A stretch of 64,000 nucleotides of DNA from Minisyncoccia bacterium (GTDB taxonomy: Bacteria; Patescibacteriota; Minisyncoccia; Phycocordibacterales; UBA918), in NCBI GenBank assembly GCA_047639355.1, contig JBLIOC010000001.1, positions 3,215 to 67,214 on the forward strand. The letters run 5' to 3'. Positions 13,619 through 38,300 of the stretch are shown here, in pieces; the stretch's first letter is position 1; each line of letters opens with the position of its first letter. A program made the translations under genes and the position numbers. The notes beneath the pieces were generated by a model. That model was not told the origin of the DNA, ran no database searches, and saw only the letters and a list, made by a program, of their open reading frames with translations.

Positions 13619-13691
13619 GGGCTCGTAGCTCATCTGGTAGAGCGCCTCATTTGCACTGAGGAGGTAGCGGGTTCAAGTCCTGTCGAGTCCA
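13619..13691 (+). tRNA. tRNA-Ala (anticodon TGC)
   Basis: Cloverleaf by eye: acceptor stem GGGCTCG/CGAGTCC with a G3:U70 wobble (the Ala identity element). D-arm GCTC-ATCTGGTA-GAGC. Anticodon arm CCTCA-TTTGCAC-TGAGG, giving TGC. T-arm GCGGG-TTCAAGT-CCTGT. Discriminator A; no encoded CCA. Confidence 0.9.
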
Positions 13692-28179: not shown

Positions 28180-29733
28180 TTATTCGCTAACTTCTACTTC
28201 GTCTCCTTCGACTAAGCCCCGTGCATCAATAACGAAAGCATCATCTTTTGCAATACCTTTCATTACTTCAACAGAGCCTCCAAGAATATTACCCAGAGAA
28301 ACAGATTTACTTACTAATTTGCCATCTTCTACAATAAATACAGAGCCGTTACTTCGGTCAAACTTCACGGCAGTGAGTGGTACCTGGATGGTGTCAGTAG
28401 ATGTTATCTCAGCATCAAACTGCTTTGTTATCCGGACGGTGTCACCGTTTGTCAGATTTGCATCTTCTGTTGCAATTCTAACTTCAGTCTTCCTGGTAAC
28501 AGAATCCACCGCTGGTGCGATTTCTGTGACTGTTCCGACAATTGTTCCTTCCACTAATACTGAATCTCCTTTAGCTAAAAGATTTTTTTCCGAGTCACTA
28601 ATATAGGTGATTACTTCCAACGCATTGTTGTTGGCTACTATAGCTACTTCTGCAAAAGAATTAATGAAGTCACCGGTTCGGATAGGCAGAGCATTTACTG
28701 TTCCACTGATTGGTGTTCGTAAAATAGTTTTTGCTAGGTTAGCTTGTGCTGCCCCAAGGGCTCCAAGTGCTTGTTTTACTTGAGCATCAGCAACAGATAT
28801 GACTCCACCGACAGCCGCTAGTTCAGCACGACGTACTCCGTCAGCAGATGACGAAAGACCAGTTAATGAAGTATCAAGGCTAGATTGTGTTTCGATTAAA
28901 GTTGATCGTAAATTTGTAAAAGAATTACTAAAACCTTGCAATTCAGTATCAGTATATCGTTTTGAATTATCATGTTGATTAAAAATTTCCAGAAATGTAT
29001 CTATGAAATTAATTGTGCGCTCAACATTTTGCTTTGCATAACCTAACTCTGTTTCTAAGTTAGAGTTGCTAGATATTACGTTGACTTGATTTTGCCATGT
29101 TGGTAAAAGTGTTTGATAAGCAACTCGTTCATCATTTAATTCACTCGTAAAACCTCTCCCACTTATTCGTAAGCCAGGAATTCTACTATTAGGATTTGCA
29201 AAAAAGGAATCAATTGAATTTACTACTACCCCGTTAGTTGTGTTGTAGGCAGACTTAAATGCTGAAACAGCCGTGTCTTGTGTTCGTTTTAGTGAATTTT
29301 TTGCTTCGTCTAAACCAACTCCACTTTGGGCTGCTGCAGCGACCGCAGCGTCATATATTCCTTCTGCTTGAAGTACAGAAGCACGTTCAGAGGCATTTTC
29401 AAGTGTTGCAAGAATTGTGCCGGCAGGTATTTGCTGACCTAGATTGACGTTCACAGCAGTCAAGCTCCCAGCTCGTTCAGAAGTAACTTCAGCTTCGGAG
29501 AATGCGCGTACATTTCCAATCAAAGAAATTGACTGACCCCCAGAATATTTTATGGGTGTAGTTAGGGTCACTATTGGCTTTTGTTGGACAACCAAGTCAT
29601 TTTTTGCAATAGGGTCACCTTTTAAAATCACTATTAACACAACGATTCCCAAAAAAACCACAGCTCCGTGTATTGTTTTACGGTTAATAAATAATTTAAG
29701 TCGTTCTGTTATTTTCATAAGATTTTGTTTCAA
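28180..29733 (-). CDS. Efflux periplasmic adaptor (membrane fusion protein, HlyD/RND-MFP family)
   Basis: 517 aa: N-terminal TM anchor, long coiled-coil, and barrel-sandwich/beta-barrel C-terminus. The stop is 5 nt from the start of the RND gene. Confidence 0.85.
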   Translation of the reverse strand: MKQNLMKITERLKLFINRKTIHGAVVFLGIVVLIVILKGDPIAKNDLVVQQKPIVTLTTPIKYSGGQSISLIGNVRAFSEAEVTSERAGSLTAVNVNLGQQIPAGTILATLENASERASVLQAEGIYDAAVAAAAQSGVGLDEAKNSLKRTQDTAVSAFKSAYNTTNGVVVNSIDSFFANPNSRIPGLRISGRGFTSELNDERVAYQTLLPTWQNQVNVISSNSNLETELGYAKQNVERTINFIDTFLEIFNQHDNSKRYTDTELQGFSNSFTNLRSTLIETQSSLDTSLTGLSSSADGVRRAELAAVGGVISVADAQVKQALGALGAAQANLAKTILRTPISGTVNALPIRTGDFINSFAEVAIVANNNALEVITYISDSEKNLLAKGDSVLVEGTIVGTVTEIAPAVDSVTRKTEVRIATEDANLTNGDTVRITKQFDAEITSTDTIQVPLTAVKFDRSNGSVFIVEDGKLVSKSVSLGNILGGSVEVMKGIAKDDAFVIDARGLVEGDEVEVSE

Positions 29734-29826
29734 GCGGGTTATTTTCGATGGAAATTACCATAAAAAATTCTTTTTGTATATAACCCTCAGGGGTTTTAAC
29801 TCTAGTACGCACTGTATGGTACAATC

Positions 29827-33723: not shown

Positions 33724-33944
33724 CACCGGAGGTCACAAGTGGCTGCAAGGTTATCGAAAGTTTTAAGTAAACGCTTTTTTGATTGGCGTGACGGAATACT
33801 CATCCCTAAAGGGTGACCAGGTTGCTTATATGGCATTGGGTGCCTTGGCAACGATGGAATACGTAAGGATCAAGAAATTACTTTCATTCCGAAAGTGAAA
33901 AAGTAATTAAACCCTGATTTGCGCAAGCAAGTAAGGGTTTTTAG

Positions 33945-34244
33945 CTAACTCAATTCTCCTGGAGGGTTGACTCTCTGTACTGGGCTGACAATATTAGGAT
34001 CCCATTTAGCGTCAATTTCTCCGTGCTTAGTTTCAAATTCCTTAACTTGATGAGACAGGTACTGTTCCAAACGCTTTGCGTGTTGCGGAGTAAGGGTATA
34101 AATAGAGCCTTGGTTACCAGAAGTTAAACCAACAACAAAGTATTCAGGGGTAAAGGCAACGTTAATACTTTCACAGAACAGCTTTGGAGCTTTTTTCAAA
34201 TCTTCTTGTTTCATTAATGTAGTATACAACAAATCTATTTTCAA
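33945..34244 (-). CDS. DUF3467-like small protein
   Basis: 99 aa. The segment TPQHAKRLEQYLSHQVKEFETKHGEI matches the conserved core of DUF3467 as recalled from memory (no search was run). Confidence 0.5.
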   Translation of the reverse strand: MKIDLLYTTLMKQEDLKKAPKLFCESINVAFTPEYFVVGLTSGNQGSIYTLTPQHAKRLEQYLSHQVKEFETKHGEIDAKWDPNIVSPVQRVNPPGELS

Positions 34245-34320
34245 ACTAGATTACTGCACAGAAAGTTTACACATCCTGAAATCAATGGCAAAATAAGGTC
34301 TTATTCGTTGGTAAATTTAG

Positions 34321-37170
34321 ATGTTTATGCATAAGCGTTTTAAGCACAATGAAATAGAGGAGAAGTGGCAGACTAAGTGGAAAACTGACAAACTTTACCG
34401 AACCACAAACAACTCTGCCAAGCCAAAAGCTTATGTGCTTGACATGTTCCCGTACCCATCTGGTGAAGGTCTACATGTAGGACACCCTAAGGGATATATC
34501 GCCACCGACATCTATTCCCGGTTCAAGCGCATGACTGGCCACGAAGTTCTTCACCCAATGGGTTTTGATGCTTTCGGCTTACCGGCTGAAAACTATGCGA
34601 TTAAAAACAAAGTGCACCCACGAGAGGCAGTAGAAACAAATGTTGCTCGTTTTAAGGAACAGCTTGAGGTTCTAGGTTTTGATTATGATTGGGATAGAGA
34701 AGTAAACACCACTGACCCTGAATACTACAAGTGGACACAGTGGATTTTCATACAGCTTTTCAAAAAAGGATTGGCATACGAAAGTTATGAGCCAATCAAC
34801 TGGTGCCCCGGCTGTCAGACTGGCTTGGCAAACGAAGACTTGGAAGCAGACGGCACTTGTGAGCGTTGTGACTCAGTTGTAGAAAAACGACCGATGAGAC
34901 AATGGGTTTTAAAGATTCGCGAGTATGCTGACCGAATGCTTGAGGATTTAAACACGTTAGACTGGCCTGAACATATAAAAGAGGCCCAGCGCAACTGGAT
35001 AGGGCGCTCTGAAGGCGCAGAAATCGACTTTGAGCTGTCTGTAGGTGAAAAGCTATCAGTATTCACAACCAGACCAGATACTCTCTACGGAGCGACTTAC
35101 ATGGTAATTGCTCCAGAGCATAAGCTTGTTCAAAAATACAAAGAACAAATCACTAACTGGACGGAAGTCGATACCTACATCACAGAGGTGAAAGACAAGA
35201 AAGAGATGGACAGACTGGATGACACTAAGGAAAAGACAGGGGTAAAACTAGAAGGAATCACAGCAACAAACCCAGCTAGCGGAGAAGAGATTCCTGTATA
35301 CATCGCAGACTACGTACTAGCAAGCTACGGAACAGGAGCGATTATGGCTGTTCCTGCCCATGATGAGAGAGATAATGCTTTCGCTAAGAAGTTTGGGATT
35401 CATATCAAACAAGTCGTAACTACAATTTTTAACCATAATTCTGAACGTGATGAAAAGGTAAGACGTGGTGTATATGCACTACTTGAGAATGATGATGATG
35501 AGTATTTGATTCAACAAATTACCCTGCCTGCAAAGAATGGTGATGGTGCTTTCTATTGGCTACCTGGAGGAGGTGTAAACGAAGGTGAAAATGATACGGA
35601 TACTCTAAAAAGAGAAGTTTTGGAAGAAACAGGATATCTTGATTTTTGTGTCAAAGAAAAAATTACTAGGGTTCTATATGACTACTCCGATGGAGCACCA
35701 AGACAAGGTAGAAAGGTTGTTGACGTTTACCATGTAAAACTAAAAAGTGAGAAGAGGGAAGAAATTCAATTAGACGAAGACGAAATTAAATGGGGTCTCG
35801 AATCACAATGGGTTAAAAAAAGTGATCTGCAAAGCACTCTAAAAAATGGATCTCCCGAACGATCAAAATTGATACAGTTTGTTGTTGATGTACACAACGG
35901 TCTGGTTTCTACACAATCTGGAGAACTAATGAACTCAGAAAAATTTGATGAAATGACTTCTAAAGAAGCAGGCAAAGCCATTGTAGAAAAAGTTGGTGGA
36001 CGAATGACTACTACTTATAAGATTAAAGACTGGGTATTTTCTAGACAACGTTATTGGGGAGAACCGATTCCAATAATTCACTGTGAGAAGTGTGGACCTG
36101 TTGCTGTGCCAGAAAGTGAACTTCCTCTCGTCCTGCCTGAGGTTGAGAACTACGAGCCAGCTGGTGACGGACAATCTCCTCTCTCCAACATTGATGAGTG
36201 GGTAAACACTACTTGTCCGGCTTGTAACGAACCTGCAAAACGAGAAACCAACACCATGCCACAATGGGCGGGTTCTTCGTGGTACTACTTGCGATACATG
36301 GATCCTAACAATGATAAGGCGTTAGTTTCGAAGGAAAATGAAAAGTATTGGGCACCAGTTGATGTCTATGTAGGAGGTGATCACGCTGTTCGTCATCTTA
36401 TTTATGCTCGTTTCTGGCACAAATTTCTTTACGATATTAATGTCGTAAGTACTATCGAACCGTTTCAACGACTCGAATTTCTAGGTTTCATTCTCGCTGA
36501 AGACGGACGAAAAATGAGTAAGCGGTGGGGTAACGTAATCAACCCGGACGACATTGTAAAATTAGTTGGAGCTGATACGTTGCGCGTTTATGAAATGTTC
36601 ATGGGACCGTTCGAGAACGTTATCGCATGGAGTCAGGACGGTTTGGCTGGTTCTCGCCGCTTCTTAGAACGAGTGTATGGTTTGTCGCAACATATTCAGG
36701 ATGAAGAGCCAAAGGAAGTGACAACTCTACTGCACAAGACAATAAAGAAGGTTACAGATGATATTGAAGGTTTTAAGTTCAATACTGCAATTAGTGCGAT
36801 GATGATATTACTTAATCAGGCTGAAAAGACAGGTATTAGTAAGGAAGGGTACAGGTCATTTCTTAAATTTTTGGCCCCTTTCGCTCCGCATCTAACTGAG
36901 GAGTTGTGGGCGGAAAATGGAAATATGACCAGTGTTCATACAGACGACTGGCCAGTTTACATCTCTAGTTTGGCCCAAGATGATGTGGTAACTATTGGCG
37001 TCCAGATCAATGGCAAAATGCGTGGAGAAATTTCTATTTCCCCAAAAGCAACACAGGTAGAAGCAATGGAAGAAGTTGGTGGAAATCAGTCTCTTTTGGC
37101 AAAGTTTGATAGCGCTAAAATTAAAAAAATAATCTATGTTCAGGGTAGAATCATCAATCTCATAATTTAG
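34321..37170 (+). CDS. leuS: Leucyl-tRNA synthetase carrying an inserted NUDIX hydrolase domain
   Basis: HIGH motif (HVGHPKGY), CP1 editing motifs (TTRPDT; GTGAIMAVPAHDERD), KMSKS (RKMSKR). An inserted ~150-aa domain at about nt 35440-35905 carries a perfect Nudix box (GGVNEGENDTDTLKREVLEETGY). Confidence 0.93.
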   Translation: MFMHKRFKHNEIEEKWQTKWKTDKLYRTTNNSAKPKAYVLDMFPYPSGEGLHVGHPKGYIATDIYSRFKRMTGHEVLHPMGFDAFGLPAENYAIKNKVHPREAVETNVARFKEQLEVLGFDYDWDREVNTTDPEYYKWTQWIFIQLFKKGLAYESYEPINWCPGCQTGLANEDLEADGTCERCDSVVEKRPMRQWVLKIREYADRMLEDLNTLDWPEHIKEAQRNWIGRSEGAEIDFELSVGEKLSVFTTRPDTLYGATYMVIAPEHKLVQKYKEQITNWTEVDTYITEVKDKKEMDRLDDTKEKTGVKLEGITATNPASGEEIPVYIADYVLASYGTGAIMAVPAHDERDNAFAKKFGIHIKQVVTTIFNHNSERDEKVRRGVYALLENDDDEYLIQQITLPAKNGDGAFYWLPGGGVNEGENDTDTLKREVLEETGYLDFCVKEKITRVLYDYSDGAPRQGRKVVDVYHVKLKSEKREEIQLDEDEIKWGLESQWVKKSDLQSTLKNGSPERSKLIQFVVDVHNGLVSTQSGELMNSEKFDEMTSKEAGKAIVEKVGGRMTTTYKIKDWVFSRQRYWGEPIPIIHCEKCGPVAVPESELPLVLPEVENYEPAGDGQSPLSNIDEWVNTTCPACNEPAKRETNTMPQWAGSSWYYLRYMDPNNDKALVSKENEKYWAPVDVYVGGDHAVRHLIYARFWHKFLYDINVVSTIEPFQRLEFLGFILAEDGRKMSKRWGNVINPDDIVKLVGADTLRVYEMFMGPFENVIAWSQDGLAGSRRFLERVYGLSQHIQDEEPKEVTTLLHKTIKKVTDDIEGFKFNTAISAMMILLNQAEKTGISKEGYRSFLKFLAPFAPHLTEELWAENGNMTSVHTDDWPVYISSLAQDDVVTIGVQINGKMRGEISISPKATQVEAMEEVGGNQSLLAKFDSAKIKKIIYVQGRIINLII

Positions 37171-37241: not shown

Positions 37242-38300
37242 TTGAGCAATCAAACCCAACCTTCTAATATTAATATGATTTCATTTAAGCCTAAACAAAT
37301 AAGTAAGACATTGCTTGAAGTTCTCCCTGAAAGAGCTTGTGACGTACTCGAAAAACGCTATGGTCTTGGTAAAGATGGTGAGACATTCACACTTGAAGCT
37401 ATTGGCCAGTCTTACGGGATTACACGTGAGCGTGTTCGTCAGATTGAGAATTACGGTATCCAGTCAATTCAAAAGTCTGAAGTTTATAAAAAGAGTTGTG
37501 ATCTTTTTTTAGAAATGCAAAAACTCATTGACCAACTTGGTGGAGGACTTATAGCCGAACACGTTTTGCTGGATGAACTTAGTGATGACCCAATTACACG
37601 TAACCACCTCTACTTTATTTTGATAGTAGGCGATCCTTTCTACAAAAGTAAGGAGAACCCTCATTATACTCATCGATGGTTTACAGAACGAAAGACAGCT
37701 GACTCTGTAGAAAAAGCACTCAAAAATGTTTATAAAAATCTTAATCGCGACGAGTTAGTCAGCGAGATCGATATTATAAGTCGCTTCAGAACAGAATTGG
37801 TCGAATTGTCAGATAGTCACGACGATCAAGTGTTAAGACGCTGGTTGCAAATCTCTAAACAGATCGGCTGTAACCCGTTAGGTGACTGGGGTCCTGCAGA
37901 AAGTCCAAATATTCGCGTTAAGGGAATTCGTGACTACGCTTATTTGTCAGTTAAACGTCATGGTTCTCCAATGCACTTCCGTGAAGTGGCAAATACTATC
38001 AACGACCTTTTTGATCATCAGGCTCATGTTGCAACGACTCATAATGAGCTAATTAAGGACTCACGTTTTGTATTGGTTGGACGAGGGCTATACGCTCTAA
38101 CTGAATGGGGATACACAGCTGGTGTAGTAAAAGATGTCCTTCACGGAGTTCTAGAACAAGAGGGTCCACTTTCCCGTGAAGAACTAATCGATAAAGTTCG
38201 TAAGGAGCGATACGTGAAGGACAATACTATTCTTGTTAACCTACAGGACACCAGTCTATTCAGAAAACTTGCAAACGGTACTTATACATTAGCTGAATAA
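37242..38300 (+). CDS. Hypothetical protein with an N-terminal sigma-70 region-4-like HTH and a C-terminal HARE-HTH-like winged helix
   Basis: N-terminal LEAIGQSYGITRERVRQIENYGIQSI (sigma r4 signature). C-terminal MHFREVANTIN ... SRFVLVGRGLYALTEWGY resembles the RNAP-delta/HARE-HTH motif (..F..VGRGLFGLREW). Confidence 0.55.
   Translation: MSNQTQPSNINMISFKPKQISKTLLEVLPERACDVLEKRYGLGKDGETFTLEAIGQSYGITRERVRQIENYGIQSIQKSEVYKKSCDLFLEMQKLIDQLGGGLIAEHVLLDELSDDPITRNHLYFILIVGDPFYKSKENPHYTHRWFTERKTADSVEKALKNVYKNLNRDELVSEIDIISRFRTELVELSDSHDDQVLRRWLQISKQIGCNPLGDWGPAESPNIRVKGIRDYAYLSVKRHGSPMHFREVANTINDLFDHQAHVATTHNELIKDSRFVLVGRGLYALTEWGYTAGVVKDVLHGVLEQEGPLSREELIDKVRKERYVKDNTILVNLQDTSLFRKLANGTYTLAE

Follow-up and report, generated by a model that had tools for sequence, protein, structure and literature searches.

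An exchangeable Nudix-type cassette in the CP1 editing domain of a leucyl-tRNA synthetase from a Minisyncoccia bacterium

The leuS gene and the domain inserted in it

The subject of this study is the leucyl-tRNA synthetase gene, leuS, in a window of 64,000 nucleotides from contig JBLIOC010000001.1 of a Minisyncoccia bacterium; all positions given below are those of the window. The gene occupies 34321..37170 on the plus strand and, as judged by open reading frame (ORF) and profile match, encodes a bacterial-type leucyl-tRNA synthetase (LeuRS) of 949 amino acids including an insert. The insert, residues 367-531 (165 aa; 35419..35913, plus strand), lies in a loop at the surface of the CP1 editing domain and was recognized by Pfam, by its predicted fold and by a break in synteny. 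It carries a Nudix domain, and both its presence and its type vary among closely related loci, for which reason we refer to it and its counterparts as cassettes.

The LeuRS that hosts the insert is by all indications an ordinary one, as the initial annotation had also held. Its sequence matches the NCBIfam model TIGR00396 (leuS_bact) with 992 bits (cut-off 548) and the LeuRS of Thermus thermophilus (1h3n) with E = 4e-212, and an identical protein is on record (P0001, 'MAG: leucyl-tRNA synthetase [Candidatus Paceibacteria bacterium]', from a 71.6-kb contig). The motifs of the synthetic site were found by sequence match on the plus strand, the HIGH motif as HVGH at residues 52-55 (34474..34485) and the KMSKS motif as KMSKR at residues 731-735 (36511..36525). 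The N-terminal part of the CP1 editing domain (residues 224-366; 34990..35418, plus strand) was detected by Pfam PF13603 with a score of 202 bits and includes, on the same strand, the T-rich motif TTRPDT (residues 249-254; 35065-35082) and the conserved Asp348 (35362-35364). Past the insert, the C-terminal part of CP1 and the re-entry into the catalytic core (YKIKDW...) follow at residues 532-570 (35914..36030, plus strand), which align with 1h3n from residue 379 onward.

Conservation was assessed among the 120 best LeuRS relatives, collected from NCBI, JGI, ENA and Logan assemblies with contigs of up to 688 kb. The loop that is occupied by the insert has 140-180 residues, forming a Nudix domain, in 80 of them, is short in 38, and has about 80 residues in the other 2. 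Across the 80 relatives H52, V53, G54 and H55 of the HIGH motif, K731, M732, S733 and K734 of the KMSKS motif, and T249, T250, R251, T254, H347 and D348 of the editing site are all unchanged, so that both the synthetic and the editing motifs are intact in the insert-bearing protein. A segment matching residues 580-638 of the T. thermophilus enzyme, which we take to be the leucine-specific domain, is missing from the window LeuRS; the alignment skips it between query residues 727 and 732 (36490-36530).

The Nudix assignment of the insert, first proposed in the initial annotation, was confirmed by several approaches. Pfam NUDIX (PF00293) matches residues 381-517 of the full protein at E = 5.6e-13, scoring 49.5 bits against a cut-off of 21.1; the insert scanned by itself scores 53 bits. 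The Nudix box, GGVNEGENDTDTLKREVLEETGY, at residues 417-439 (35569..35637, plus strand), fits the pattern GX5EX7REUXEEXGU at each defined position, as had been read from the translation, and is the sole Nudix box in a six-frame translation of the 64-kb window. When the query is aligned to the T. thermophilus enzyme, about 166 of its residues (366-532) stand opposite a stretch of roughly 17 in 1h3n (362-379), in agreement with the earlier estimate of about 150 extra residues, and the interval proposed for them, 35440-35905, falls within the insert as delimited here.

The placement of the insert had to be revised. It was thought to lie between the end of CP1 and the catalytic core; however, the Pfam editing-domain model halts ahead of the insert at profile position 146 of 185 (residues 224-372), and once residues 367-531 are removed in silico the same model matches unbroken over positions 1-183 of 185. 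Because the editing-domain profile is interrupted by the insert and contiguous without it, the insert must lie inside CP1 and not at the junction of CP1 and the core. The site is a hypervariable loop, at which Nudix-free relatives have 12-83 unrelated residues.

Structure prediction, a check recommended with the original proposal, gave a confident result. AlphaFold2 modeled the full protein, with 80 homologues, with a predicted local distance difference test score (pLDDT) of 85.2 and a predicted template modeling score (pTM) of 0.75, the insert lying mostly at 88-95, and the domain alone with a pLDDT of 91.6. The domain model has the classical order of Nudix strands and helices of a MutT-type domain, with the REx2EE motif borne by a helix at domain residues 60-72. 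A Foldseek search of the PDB with the domain model returned 571 matches at E <= 0.001, and the best 50 are all Nudix hydrolases. They are small single-domain Nudix enzymes with template modeling (TM) scores of 0.55-0.74 at 17-23% identity; the MutT/nudix protein of Enterococcus faecalis (2azw), the Ap4A hydrolase of Aquifex (3i7u, the second-best match) and MutT are among the matches, as are an NTP/CTP pyrophosphohydrolase, DR1025 and RppH. The NCBIfam subfamilies tested comprised MutT, RppH, NudG, NudE, NudI, YtkD, NAD diphosphatase and ADP-ribose diphosphatase, and the best Nudix scores of the window insert were 30 bits for Nud_hyd_Dein (cut-off 200) and 24 bits for the RppH models (cut-off 116-118). 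The insert is thus, by its predicted structure, a bona fide MutT-type Nudix fold with no assignable subfamily. An intein or other self-splicing insert was considered and rejected, since the Pfam scan detected no Hint or intein family, the residues of splice junctions (N-terminal Cys or Ser, and C-terminal His-Asn with Cys, Ser or Thr next) are absent, and the insert is predicted to fold as an enzyme whose catalytic residues are conserved; the junctions read ...QVV/TTIF... and ...VSTQS/GELM....

The pattern of conservation within the insert differs sharply from that of the host. Mean identity to the query over the 80 relatives is 22% in the insert and 76% in the rest of the protein, and on this strongly diverged background none of the 80 inserts departs from G417, E432, E435 and E436; R431 is retained in 64 of them and E423 in 62, with Q at the latter position in 15. 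The initial annotation had left room for a lineage-specific extension devoid of the REx2EE glutamates; these glutamates are present throughout. The invariance of the metal-binding glutamates in such a diverged domain argues for a catalytically active enzyme, and it shows that the putative catalytic residues of the Nudix insert are under selection. The same data make it very unlikely that the domain has a non-catalytic role, either as a nucleotide-binding sensor or as a structural decoration of CP1 that tunes LeuRS itself or the binding of tRNA. Many accessory domains of aminoacyl-tRNA synthetases (aaRS) lack catalysis, and the type 3 cassettes, one of the sequence types described below, have lost two residues of the box (E423 to Q in 15 of 80, R431 to A in 13 of 80), both of which speak for such a role; but three metal-binding glutamates and the box glycine have survived in every insert despite about 20% identity between types, and the domain may be absent without any change in the scaffold. 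The altered box of type 3 (for example, P0015, P0034 and P0109; proteins and loci are given by our own P and L numbers) reads GG(I/V)ExGQTPEEAAxAEIxEEAA, with Q for the first Glu, A for the Arg and the three core glutamates retained. The chemistry of these cassettes may be altered.

Exchange of the cassette between related loci

Single-linkage clustering of the 80 inserts at 40% identity yielded at least 18 types, with about 20% identity between types; the window insert belongs to type 2, which has 14 members. The types hardly follow the phylogeny of their hosts. In a neighbor-joining (NJ) tree of the scaffolds, that is, of LeuRS outside the insert, Nudix-bearing and Nudix-free proteins are interleaved and the kinds of insert are mixed. 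Fitch parsimony on the 120-tip tree required 62 state changes, to be compared with a minimum of 18 and with 73.5 +/- 2.2 for shuffled labels, so the state of the insert is almost unlinked to scaffold phylogeny, as far as can be judged from simple neighbor joining of a highly conserved protein. Over all 3160 pairs the identities of scaffold and insert are barely correlated (r = 0.11) and their distribution is bimodal. Inserts of different type are about 0.2 identical at any scaffold identity. Mean identity within a type is 0.41-0.75, lower than that of the scaffolds (0.74-0.80), but the best-conserved pairs of one type attain the level of the scaffold, with 0.72-0.88 for the insert compared to 0.75-0.87.

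Several pairs of proteins illustrate how little the scaffold is affected. P0075 and P0120 are more than 99% identical outside the block, and P0075 has a 155-residue Nudix domain where P0120 has an unrelated loop of 45 residues. The scaffolds of P0005 and P0008 are 99% identical and bear two Nudix domains that are 27% identical, and those of P0078 and P0109 are 94% identical with Nudix domains that are 23% identical. Since P0075 and P0120 hardly differ outside the block, the scaffold evidently needs no adaptation to the cassette, and because cassettes are present, absent or swapped in proteins whose scaffolds share 94-99% of their residues, there is no co-adapted interface with LeuRS.

The exchange is also visible in DNA. 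Three pairs of contigs represent allele pairs, each from different samples and with the same neighbors on both sides. In the closest pair (L001 and L002) the flanks are 99.65% and 99.27% identical, through the downstream sortase gene, and enclose 480 bp in one locus and 151 bp in the other. In the second (L003 and L004; flanks 96.0% and 97.95% identical) and third (L005 and L006; 90.6% and 86.6%) pairs the flanks enclose a block of about 500 bp without DNA similarity. The breakpoints coincide with the borders of two conserved motifs, ...FGIxIK and xNSxEFDGM..., and in two pairs of the three divergence is modestly raised beside the block. The insert thus behaves as a discrete, exchangeable cassette with sharp breakpoints.

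The window itself provides a further comparison. It is syntenic over more than 22 kb, with 85-89% DNA identity, with locus L092, which encodes P0004 and lies on an 83-kb JGI contig. At leuS the alignment is broken only at 35400-35944, opposite 115 bp in L092 that encode a loop of 25 residues; the nearest relative of the window therefore has no Nudix insert. The DNA block of the window that lacks a counterpart in L092 spans 35401-35943. The idea that the short loop of P0004 might be what a deletion has left of a type 2 cassette was considered; the resemblance between them is only weak. The cassette blocks are more AT-rich than the host gene in every case compared. In the window the insert has a G+C content at third codon positions (GC3) of 0.224, compared to 0.404 elsewhere in leuS, and ranks among the lowest 2.3% of all 165-codon windows of the 64 kb. 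A search for a signature of site-specific insertion around the cassette detected only short repeats of a size expected by chance.

An origin of these observations in faulty assembly, either as chimeric joining that created the insert or its polymorphism or as confusion of paralogous copies in one genome, is extremely unlikely. It would draw on the facts that several of the pairs are Logan contigs and that the flanks hold identical stretches of about 31 nucleotides between species (the window and L092), which could mislead assemblers using k = 31. However, a Nudix domain is found at this loop in 80 proteins from independent assemblies and several sources, some on contigs of as much as 688 kb, by which the assembly chimera envisaged at the outset is excluded; the window (NCBI/JGI, 71-kb contig) and L092 each have their own flank haplotype; and cassettes of the same type diverge together with their scaffolds. 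The two loci of a pair stem from separate samples and are flanked by the same genes, which identifies them as alleles and not paralogs, and on these grounds we also rejected homogenization of same-genome paralogs by gene conversion. Diversification by a diversity-generating retroelement (DGR) or other hypermutation was likewise rejected, because the types are discrete, individually conserved, of differing lengths and without DNA similarity over about 500 bp, and because presence/absence states occur.

The surroundings of leuS are unremarkable. Its neighbors are ychF, a gene for a sigma70-region-4/HARE-HTH protein, yceG and mnmA, all of them housekeeping genes, and no mobile-element, toxin or defense genes were found in the neighborhood. 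The Rfam scan of the window detected no regulatory RNA upstream of leuS; the sole match at the gathering threshold in the 64 kb is one tRNA gene (13619-13691). The sigma70-region-4/HARE-HTH gene is separate from leuS in the window (37242-38300, with leuS ending at 37170). P0102 (1120 aa) unites LeuRS and this downstream protein in a single reading frame, which could be due to loss of the stop codon or to an error of sequencing or annotation. Upstream, relatives have a DUF5671 gene between a small minus-strand ORF and leuS, and L092 additionally has an ORF of 142 residues. The DUF5671 gene is absent from the corresponding part of the window (33724-34320), where a gap of 75 bp separates an ORF of 99 residues (33945-34244) from leuS. 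Elsewhere in the window, the central part of a gene for an HlyD-like membrane-fusion protein (28791-29751, within the minus-strand ORF 28180-29733) has no DNA match in L092 and shows the lowest GC3 of the window, 0.16-0.21. The center of this gene is thus another segment that is hypervariable or has been replaced locally.

Nudix domains at other sites, in other hosts and as free-standing proteins

Nudix domains were found in other LeuRS at three further sites, bringing the total to four, with up to three domains per protein. In the numbering of the query these sites are after residue 212 (P0153, and P0218 with two Nudix domains in tandem), in the CP1 beta-hairpin at residues 237-244 (P0127, P0129 and P0201) and after residue 640 (P0129); in P0152 the domains stand in tandem at the main loop. 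The hairpin, which corresponds to about 35029-35052 of the window, is a further hot spot of insertion in CP1 and also accommodates other enzymes, namely, a 186-residue PF06821 Ser-hydrolase in P0064 and a 135-residue domain of DUF559/restriction endonuclease-like (REase-like) endonuclease fold in P0198, in which the Nudix domain of the main loop is retained. Beyond LeuRS, a Nudix domain is borne by an IleRS-like protein (P0245), is inserted between the two domains of an RNase PH (P0204), and is part of a Ham1 (ITPase)-Nudix fusion on the N-terminus of a class I aaRS (P0131). It would seem that Nudix domains repeatedly associate with tRNA-handling enzymes. In P0187, a protein of 1318 residues unrelated to LeuRS, a Nudix domain occurs together with two GNAT domains and an M17 leucyl aminopeptidase, in the order GNAT, Nudix, GNAT, aminopeptidase.

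A scan of species-representative genomes, which made use of poorly conserved peptide patterns and returned mostly distant LeuRS, identified four Nudix-bearing loci, one from Paceibacterota, one from Komeilibacteria and two with a scaffold of Bacilli type. The latter scaffolds are 68-70% identical to one insert-free Bacilli LeuRS and 52-58% to the proteins of the candidate phyla radiation (CPR). Both loci carry a type 5 cassette, which is 48-52% (L009) or 41-45% (L008) identical to the CPR cassettes of type 5. As the type 5 cassettes are nearly as similar as their scaffolds, the cassette types must be old and cross-phylum. Two LeuRS of Lachnospiraceae (L080 and L083; 948 aa) exceed a typical Firmicutes LeuRS by about 140 residues, and their editing domain does not begin until residue 274, as if an insertion of another kind, not a Nudix domain, preceded CP1.

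A word-index search with the window insert alone gave no match, and an exhaustive search with it gave weak matches, the best with E = 2.7e-15. A profile search with several types retrieved free-standing Nudix proteins of 161-164 residues. Three of these (P0271, P0274 and P0275; 161-162 aa) match type 9 from end to end, N-terminal lead-in included, with 47-54% identity, and their genes sit among uvrA/uvrB/murB or rsmH-PBP-murE genes and not beside leuS. The cassette types lean weakly to separate Nudix lineages (RppH-like, YtkD-like and MutT/NudG-like), and all fill the same loop.

The repeated choice of LeuRS raises the question of whether the Nudix activity is coupled to the chemistry of the synthetase. 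In such a scheme, a narrower form of the original proposal, the domain would hydrolyze by-products such as the Ap4A or Np4N formed from Leu-AMP and ATP, acting as a local sink or as a controller of the signal, or, less plausibly, the adenylate itself. Its recruitment into LeuRS has occurred repeatedly and independently, at four sites and with tandem copies; an Ap4A hydrolase ranks second among the structural matches, which also include DR1025 and RppH; and several types show weak RppH-like profile matches. In addition, Y455 lies 16 residues past the Nudix box in a column with Y in 46, F in 9 and C in 15 of the 80 inserts; ApnA hydrolases have a conserved Tyr about 16-18 residues past the box, to which this aromatic residue may correspond. 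On the other hand, identical scaffolds can dispense with the cassette or bear another in its place, its free-standing relatives are unlinked to leuS, MutT/NudG-like as well as RppH-like lineages fill the loop, and the loop is part of the mobile CP1 domain and not of the synthetic site. Aminoacyl-adenylates, moreover, are acyl-phosphate anhydrides and not the nucleoside-diphosphate-X compounds typical of Nudix substrates. We regard such coupling as unlikely; the cassette may nevertheless hydrolyze Ap4A or Np4N. The proposal that the domain provides a second proofreading activity on activated or misactivated adenylates found no support here, given a cassette that can be lost or swapped and free-standing relatives in housekeeping contexts.

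The allele pattern suggests another kind of function, in which the Nudix domain would counter an attack on LeuRS or tRNA-Leu and the alleles would be kept by frequency-dependent selection. Candidate targets are pyrophosphate-linked modifications of the tRNA 3' CCA end, which is bound by CP1, nucleotide-type toxins and phage factors. Deeply diverged alleles and presence/absence polymorphism in near-identical loci would be expected of a conflict or immunity module, and the mildly raised divergence at the cassette borders of two allele pairs out of three, the fact that the hosts (LeuRS with its CP1, IleRS and RNase PH) all handle tRNA 3' ends, and the alternative enzymatic cargo at the adjacent CP1 hairpin would fit as well. 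We nevertheless consider it quite unlikely. PADLOC and PHROGs yielded only generic matches at the superfamily level (PDC-S07 with 18-42 bits; 'nudix hydrolase' PHROGs with 20-42 bits), so that membership in a defense system is not supported. IMG/VR contained no relatives and the phage collections gave one weak tblastn match with 31.5% identity; a phage origin of the cassette, which was considered separately, is therefore not supported by the phage, viral and PHROGs searches. The neighborhood is purely housekeeping, and the papers found on Nudix enzymes and pyrophosphorylation of the tRNA CCA end concern small alarmone hydrolases, not Nudix enzymes that act on tRNA ends. A broader and more speculative proposal, against which we see long odds, is that the CP1 loop is a natural 'domain socket' of CPR and some Bacilli-type LeuRS, in which balancing or conflict-driven selection would keep a library of Nudix and, occasionally, other hydrolase or nuclease domains that target the 3' end of tRNA-Leu or LeuRS-directed nucleotide-type toxins or alarmones, with a function in immunity or repair that would be built into an essential enzyme of translation and exchanged with its alleles.

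Interpretation and comparison with known systems

The best reading of these data, to which we assign a probability of roughly 0.5, is that the cassette is an autonomous housecleaning-type Nudix pyrophosphatase which is hosted by LeuRS and exchanged by recombination. The insert would be a complete, catalytically competent, small pyrophosphohydrolase domain of MutT/RppH type, grafted in frame on the hypervariable CP1 loop of an otherwise fully functional LeuRS, and its substrate would be a nucleotide-type pyrophosphate, for example, a nucleoside triphosphate (NTP), a dinucleoside polyphosphate or the 5' end of an RNA. LeuRS would serve as a constitutively expressed carrier and not as a partner in proofreading. 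Many ancient cassette types would have been swapped, lost and regained between lineages, most simply via homologous recombination through the conserved flanks (...FGIxIK on one side of the cassette and xNSxEFDGM... on the other), giving rise to polymorphism of presence and type even within one species. That the cassette is catalytically active, that it works apart from the chemistry of LeuRS and that it is exchanged by recombination are inferences from the comparison of sequences. Structural autonomy is suggested by the scaffold, which is unchanged when the cassette is swapped or removed, and the housecleaning reading is favored because the free-standing relatives are ordinary housekeeping genes, because several Nudix lineages have been collected on one protein, and because Ham1 is the partner in one fusion.

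Several points weigh against this reading. No cassette type reaches any NCBIfam equivalog cut-off, and no substrate is assignable. Similarity to the query governed the choice of the 120 sequences, and the scaffolds were arranged by simple NJ; several allele pairs are Logan assemblies made with k = 31, in which mis-joins of the graph at conserved flanks are conceivable. The repeated insertion of Nudix domains, into LeuRS at four sites, IleRS and RNase PH, looks non-random, and there could be a functional tie to tRNA or aaRS chemistry that the idea of a carrier leaves unexplained. Furthermore, polymorphism of deeply diverged alleles within a species is usually the result of balancing or conflict-driven selection and not of plain housekeeping. 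It is because of the repeated choice of LeuRS and other enzymes of the tRNA 3' end, together with the allele pattern, that coupling to LeuRS chemistry and a role in conflict both stay alive as alternatives to an autonomous housecleaning enzyme.

Full-text literature searches found no published description of the Nudix-in-LeuRS architecture. The combination of Nudix and LeuRS domains is visible in precomputed Pfam annotations, so that the databases hold the architecture implicitly. The aaRS are a textbook case of the gain of accessory domains, and the larger surprise is the mode of evolution, in which an internal segment of an essential and conserved gene acts as an accessory-gene cassette, with many ancient alleles, presence or absence in near-identical loci, a type shared between CPR-type and Bacilli-type LeuRS and up to three copies. 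If this is true, the loop is a natural and repeatedly validated site for domain insertion into LeuRS that would be useful in protein engineering, and the system offers a tractable case of the entry of new domains into essential enzymes. It also poses a testable question: do bacteria with small genomes tie nucleotide housecleaning, or the control of tRNA or alarmones, to their translation machinery?

Canonical bacterial LeuRS, such as those of T. thermophilus (1h3n) and Escherichia coli (3zgz and 4aq7), share with the window LeuRS the HIGH and KMSKS motifs, CP1 with its T-rich motif and Asp, and the anticodon-binding and C-terminal domains, but have a CP1 loop of about 17 residues where the window LeuRS has the 165-residue Nudix domain. 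The free-standing Nudix enzymes of the MutT, RppH and Ap4A hydrolase kind (2azw, 3i7u, 3hhj, 1sjy and 3ees) share the predicted fold, with TM scores of 0.55-0.74, as well as the complete Nudix box and the size (about 130-160 residues); unlike them, the cassette is embedded in an essential enzyme, and it is only 17-23% identical to solved structures.

The family NF040702, 'isoleucine--tRNA ligase, N-acetyltransferase domain-containing', is, by its name, also a class Ia aaRS with an unrelated domain that modifies small molecules, although there the enzyme is a GNAT and the synthetase IleRS; we know of no cassette polymorphism in that family. Housecleaning NTPases are linked to tRNA-processing genes in the association of rph with rdgB/Ham1, in which a nucleotide-sanitizing enzyme is likewise tied to a tRNA-handling enzyme (compare P0204 and P0131). 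Links of this type are operon partners or end-to-end fusions, whereas the cassette is a loop insert exchanged as alleles. In its pattern of variation the cassette resembles, by analogy only, the central domain of flagellin and the target-recognition domains of HsdS, which are also discrete, deeply diverged internal alleles that recombination shuffles between conserved arms, in conflict with phylogeny. The variable segments of those proteins are exposed at the surface or determine DNA specificity, under selection that is understood; the Nudix cassette differs from them in being a cytoplasmic enzyme domain inside an aaRS.

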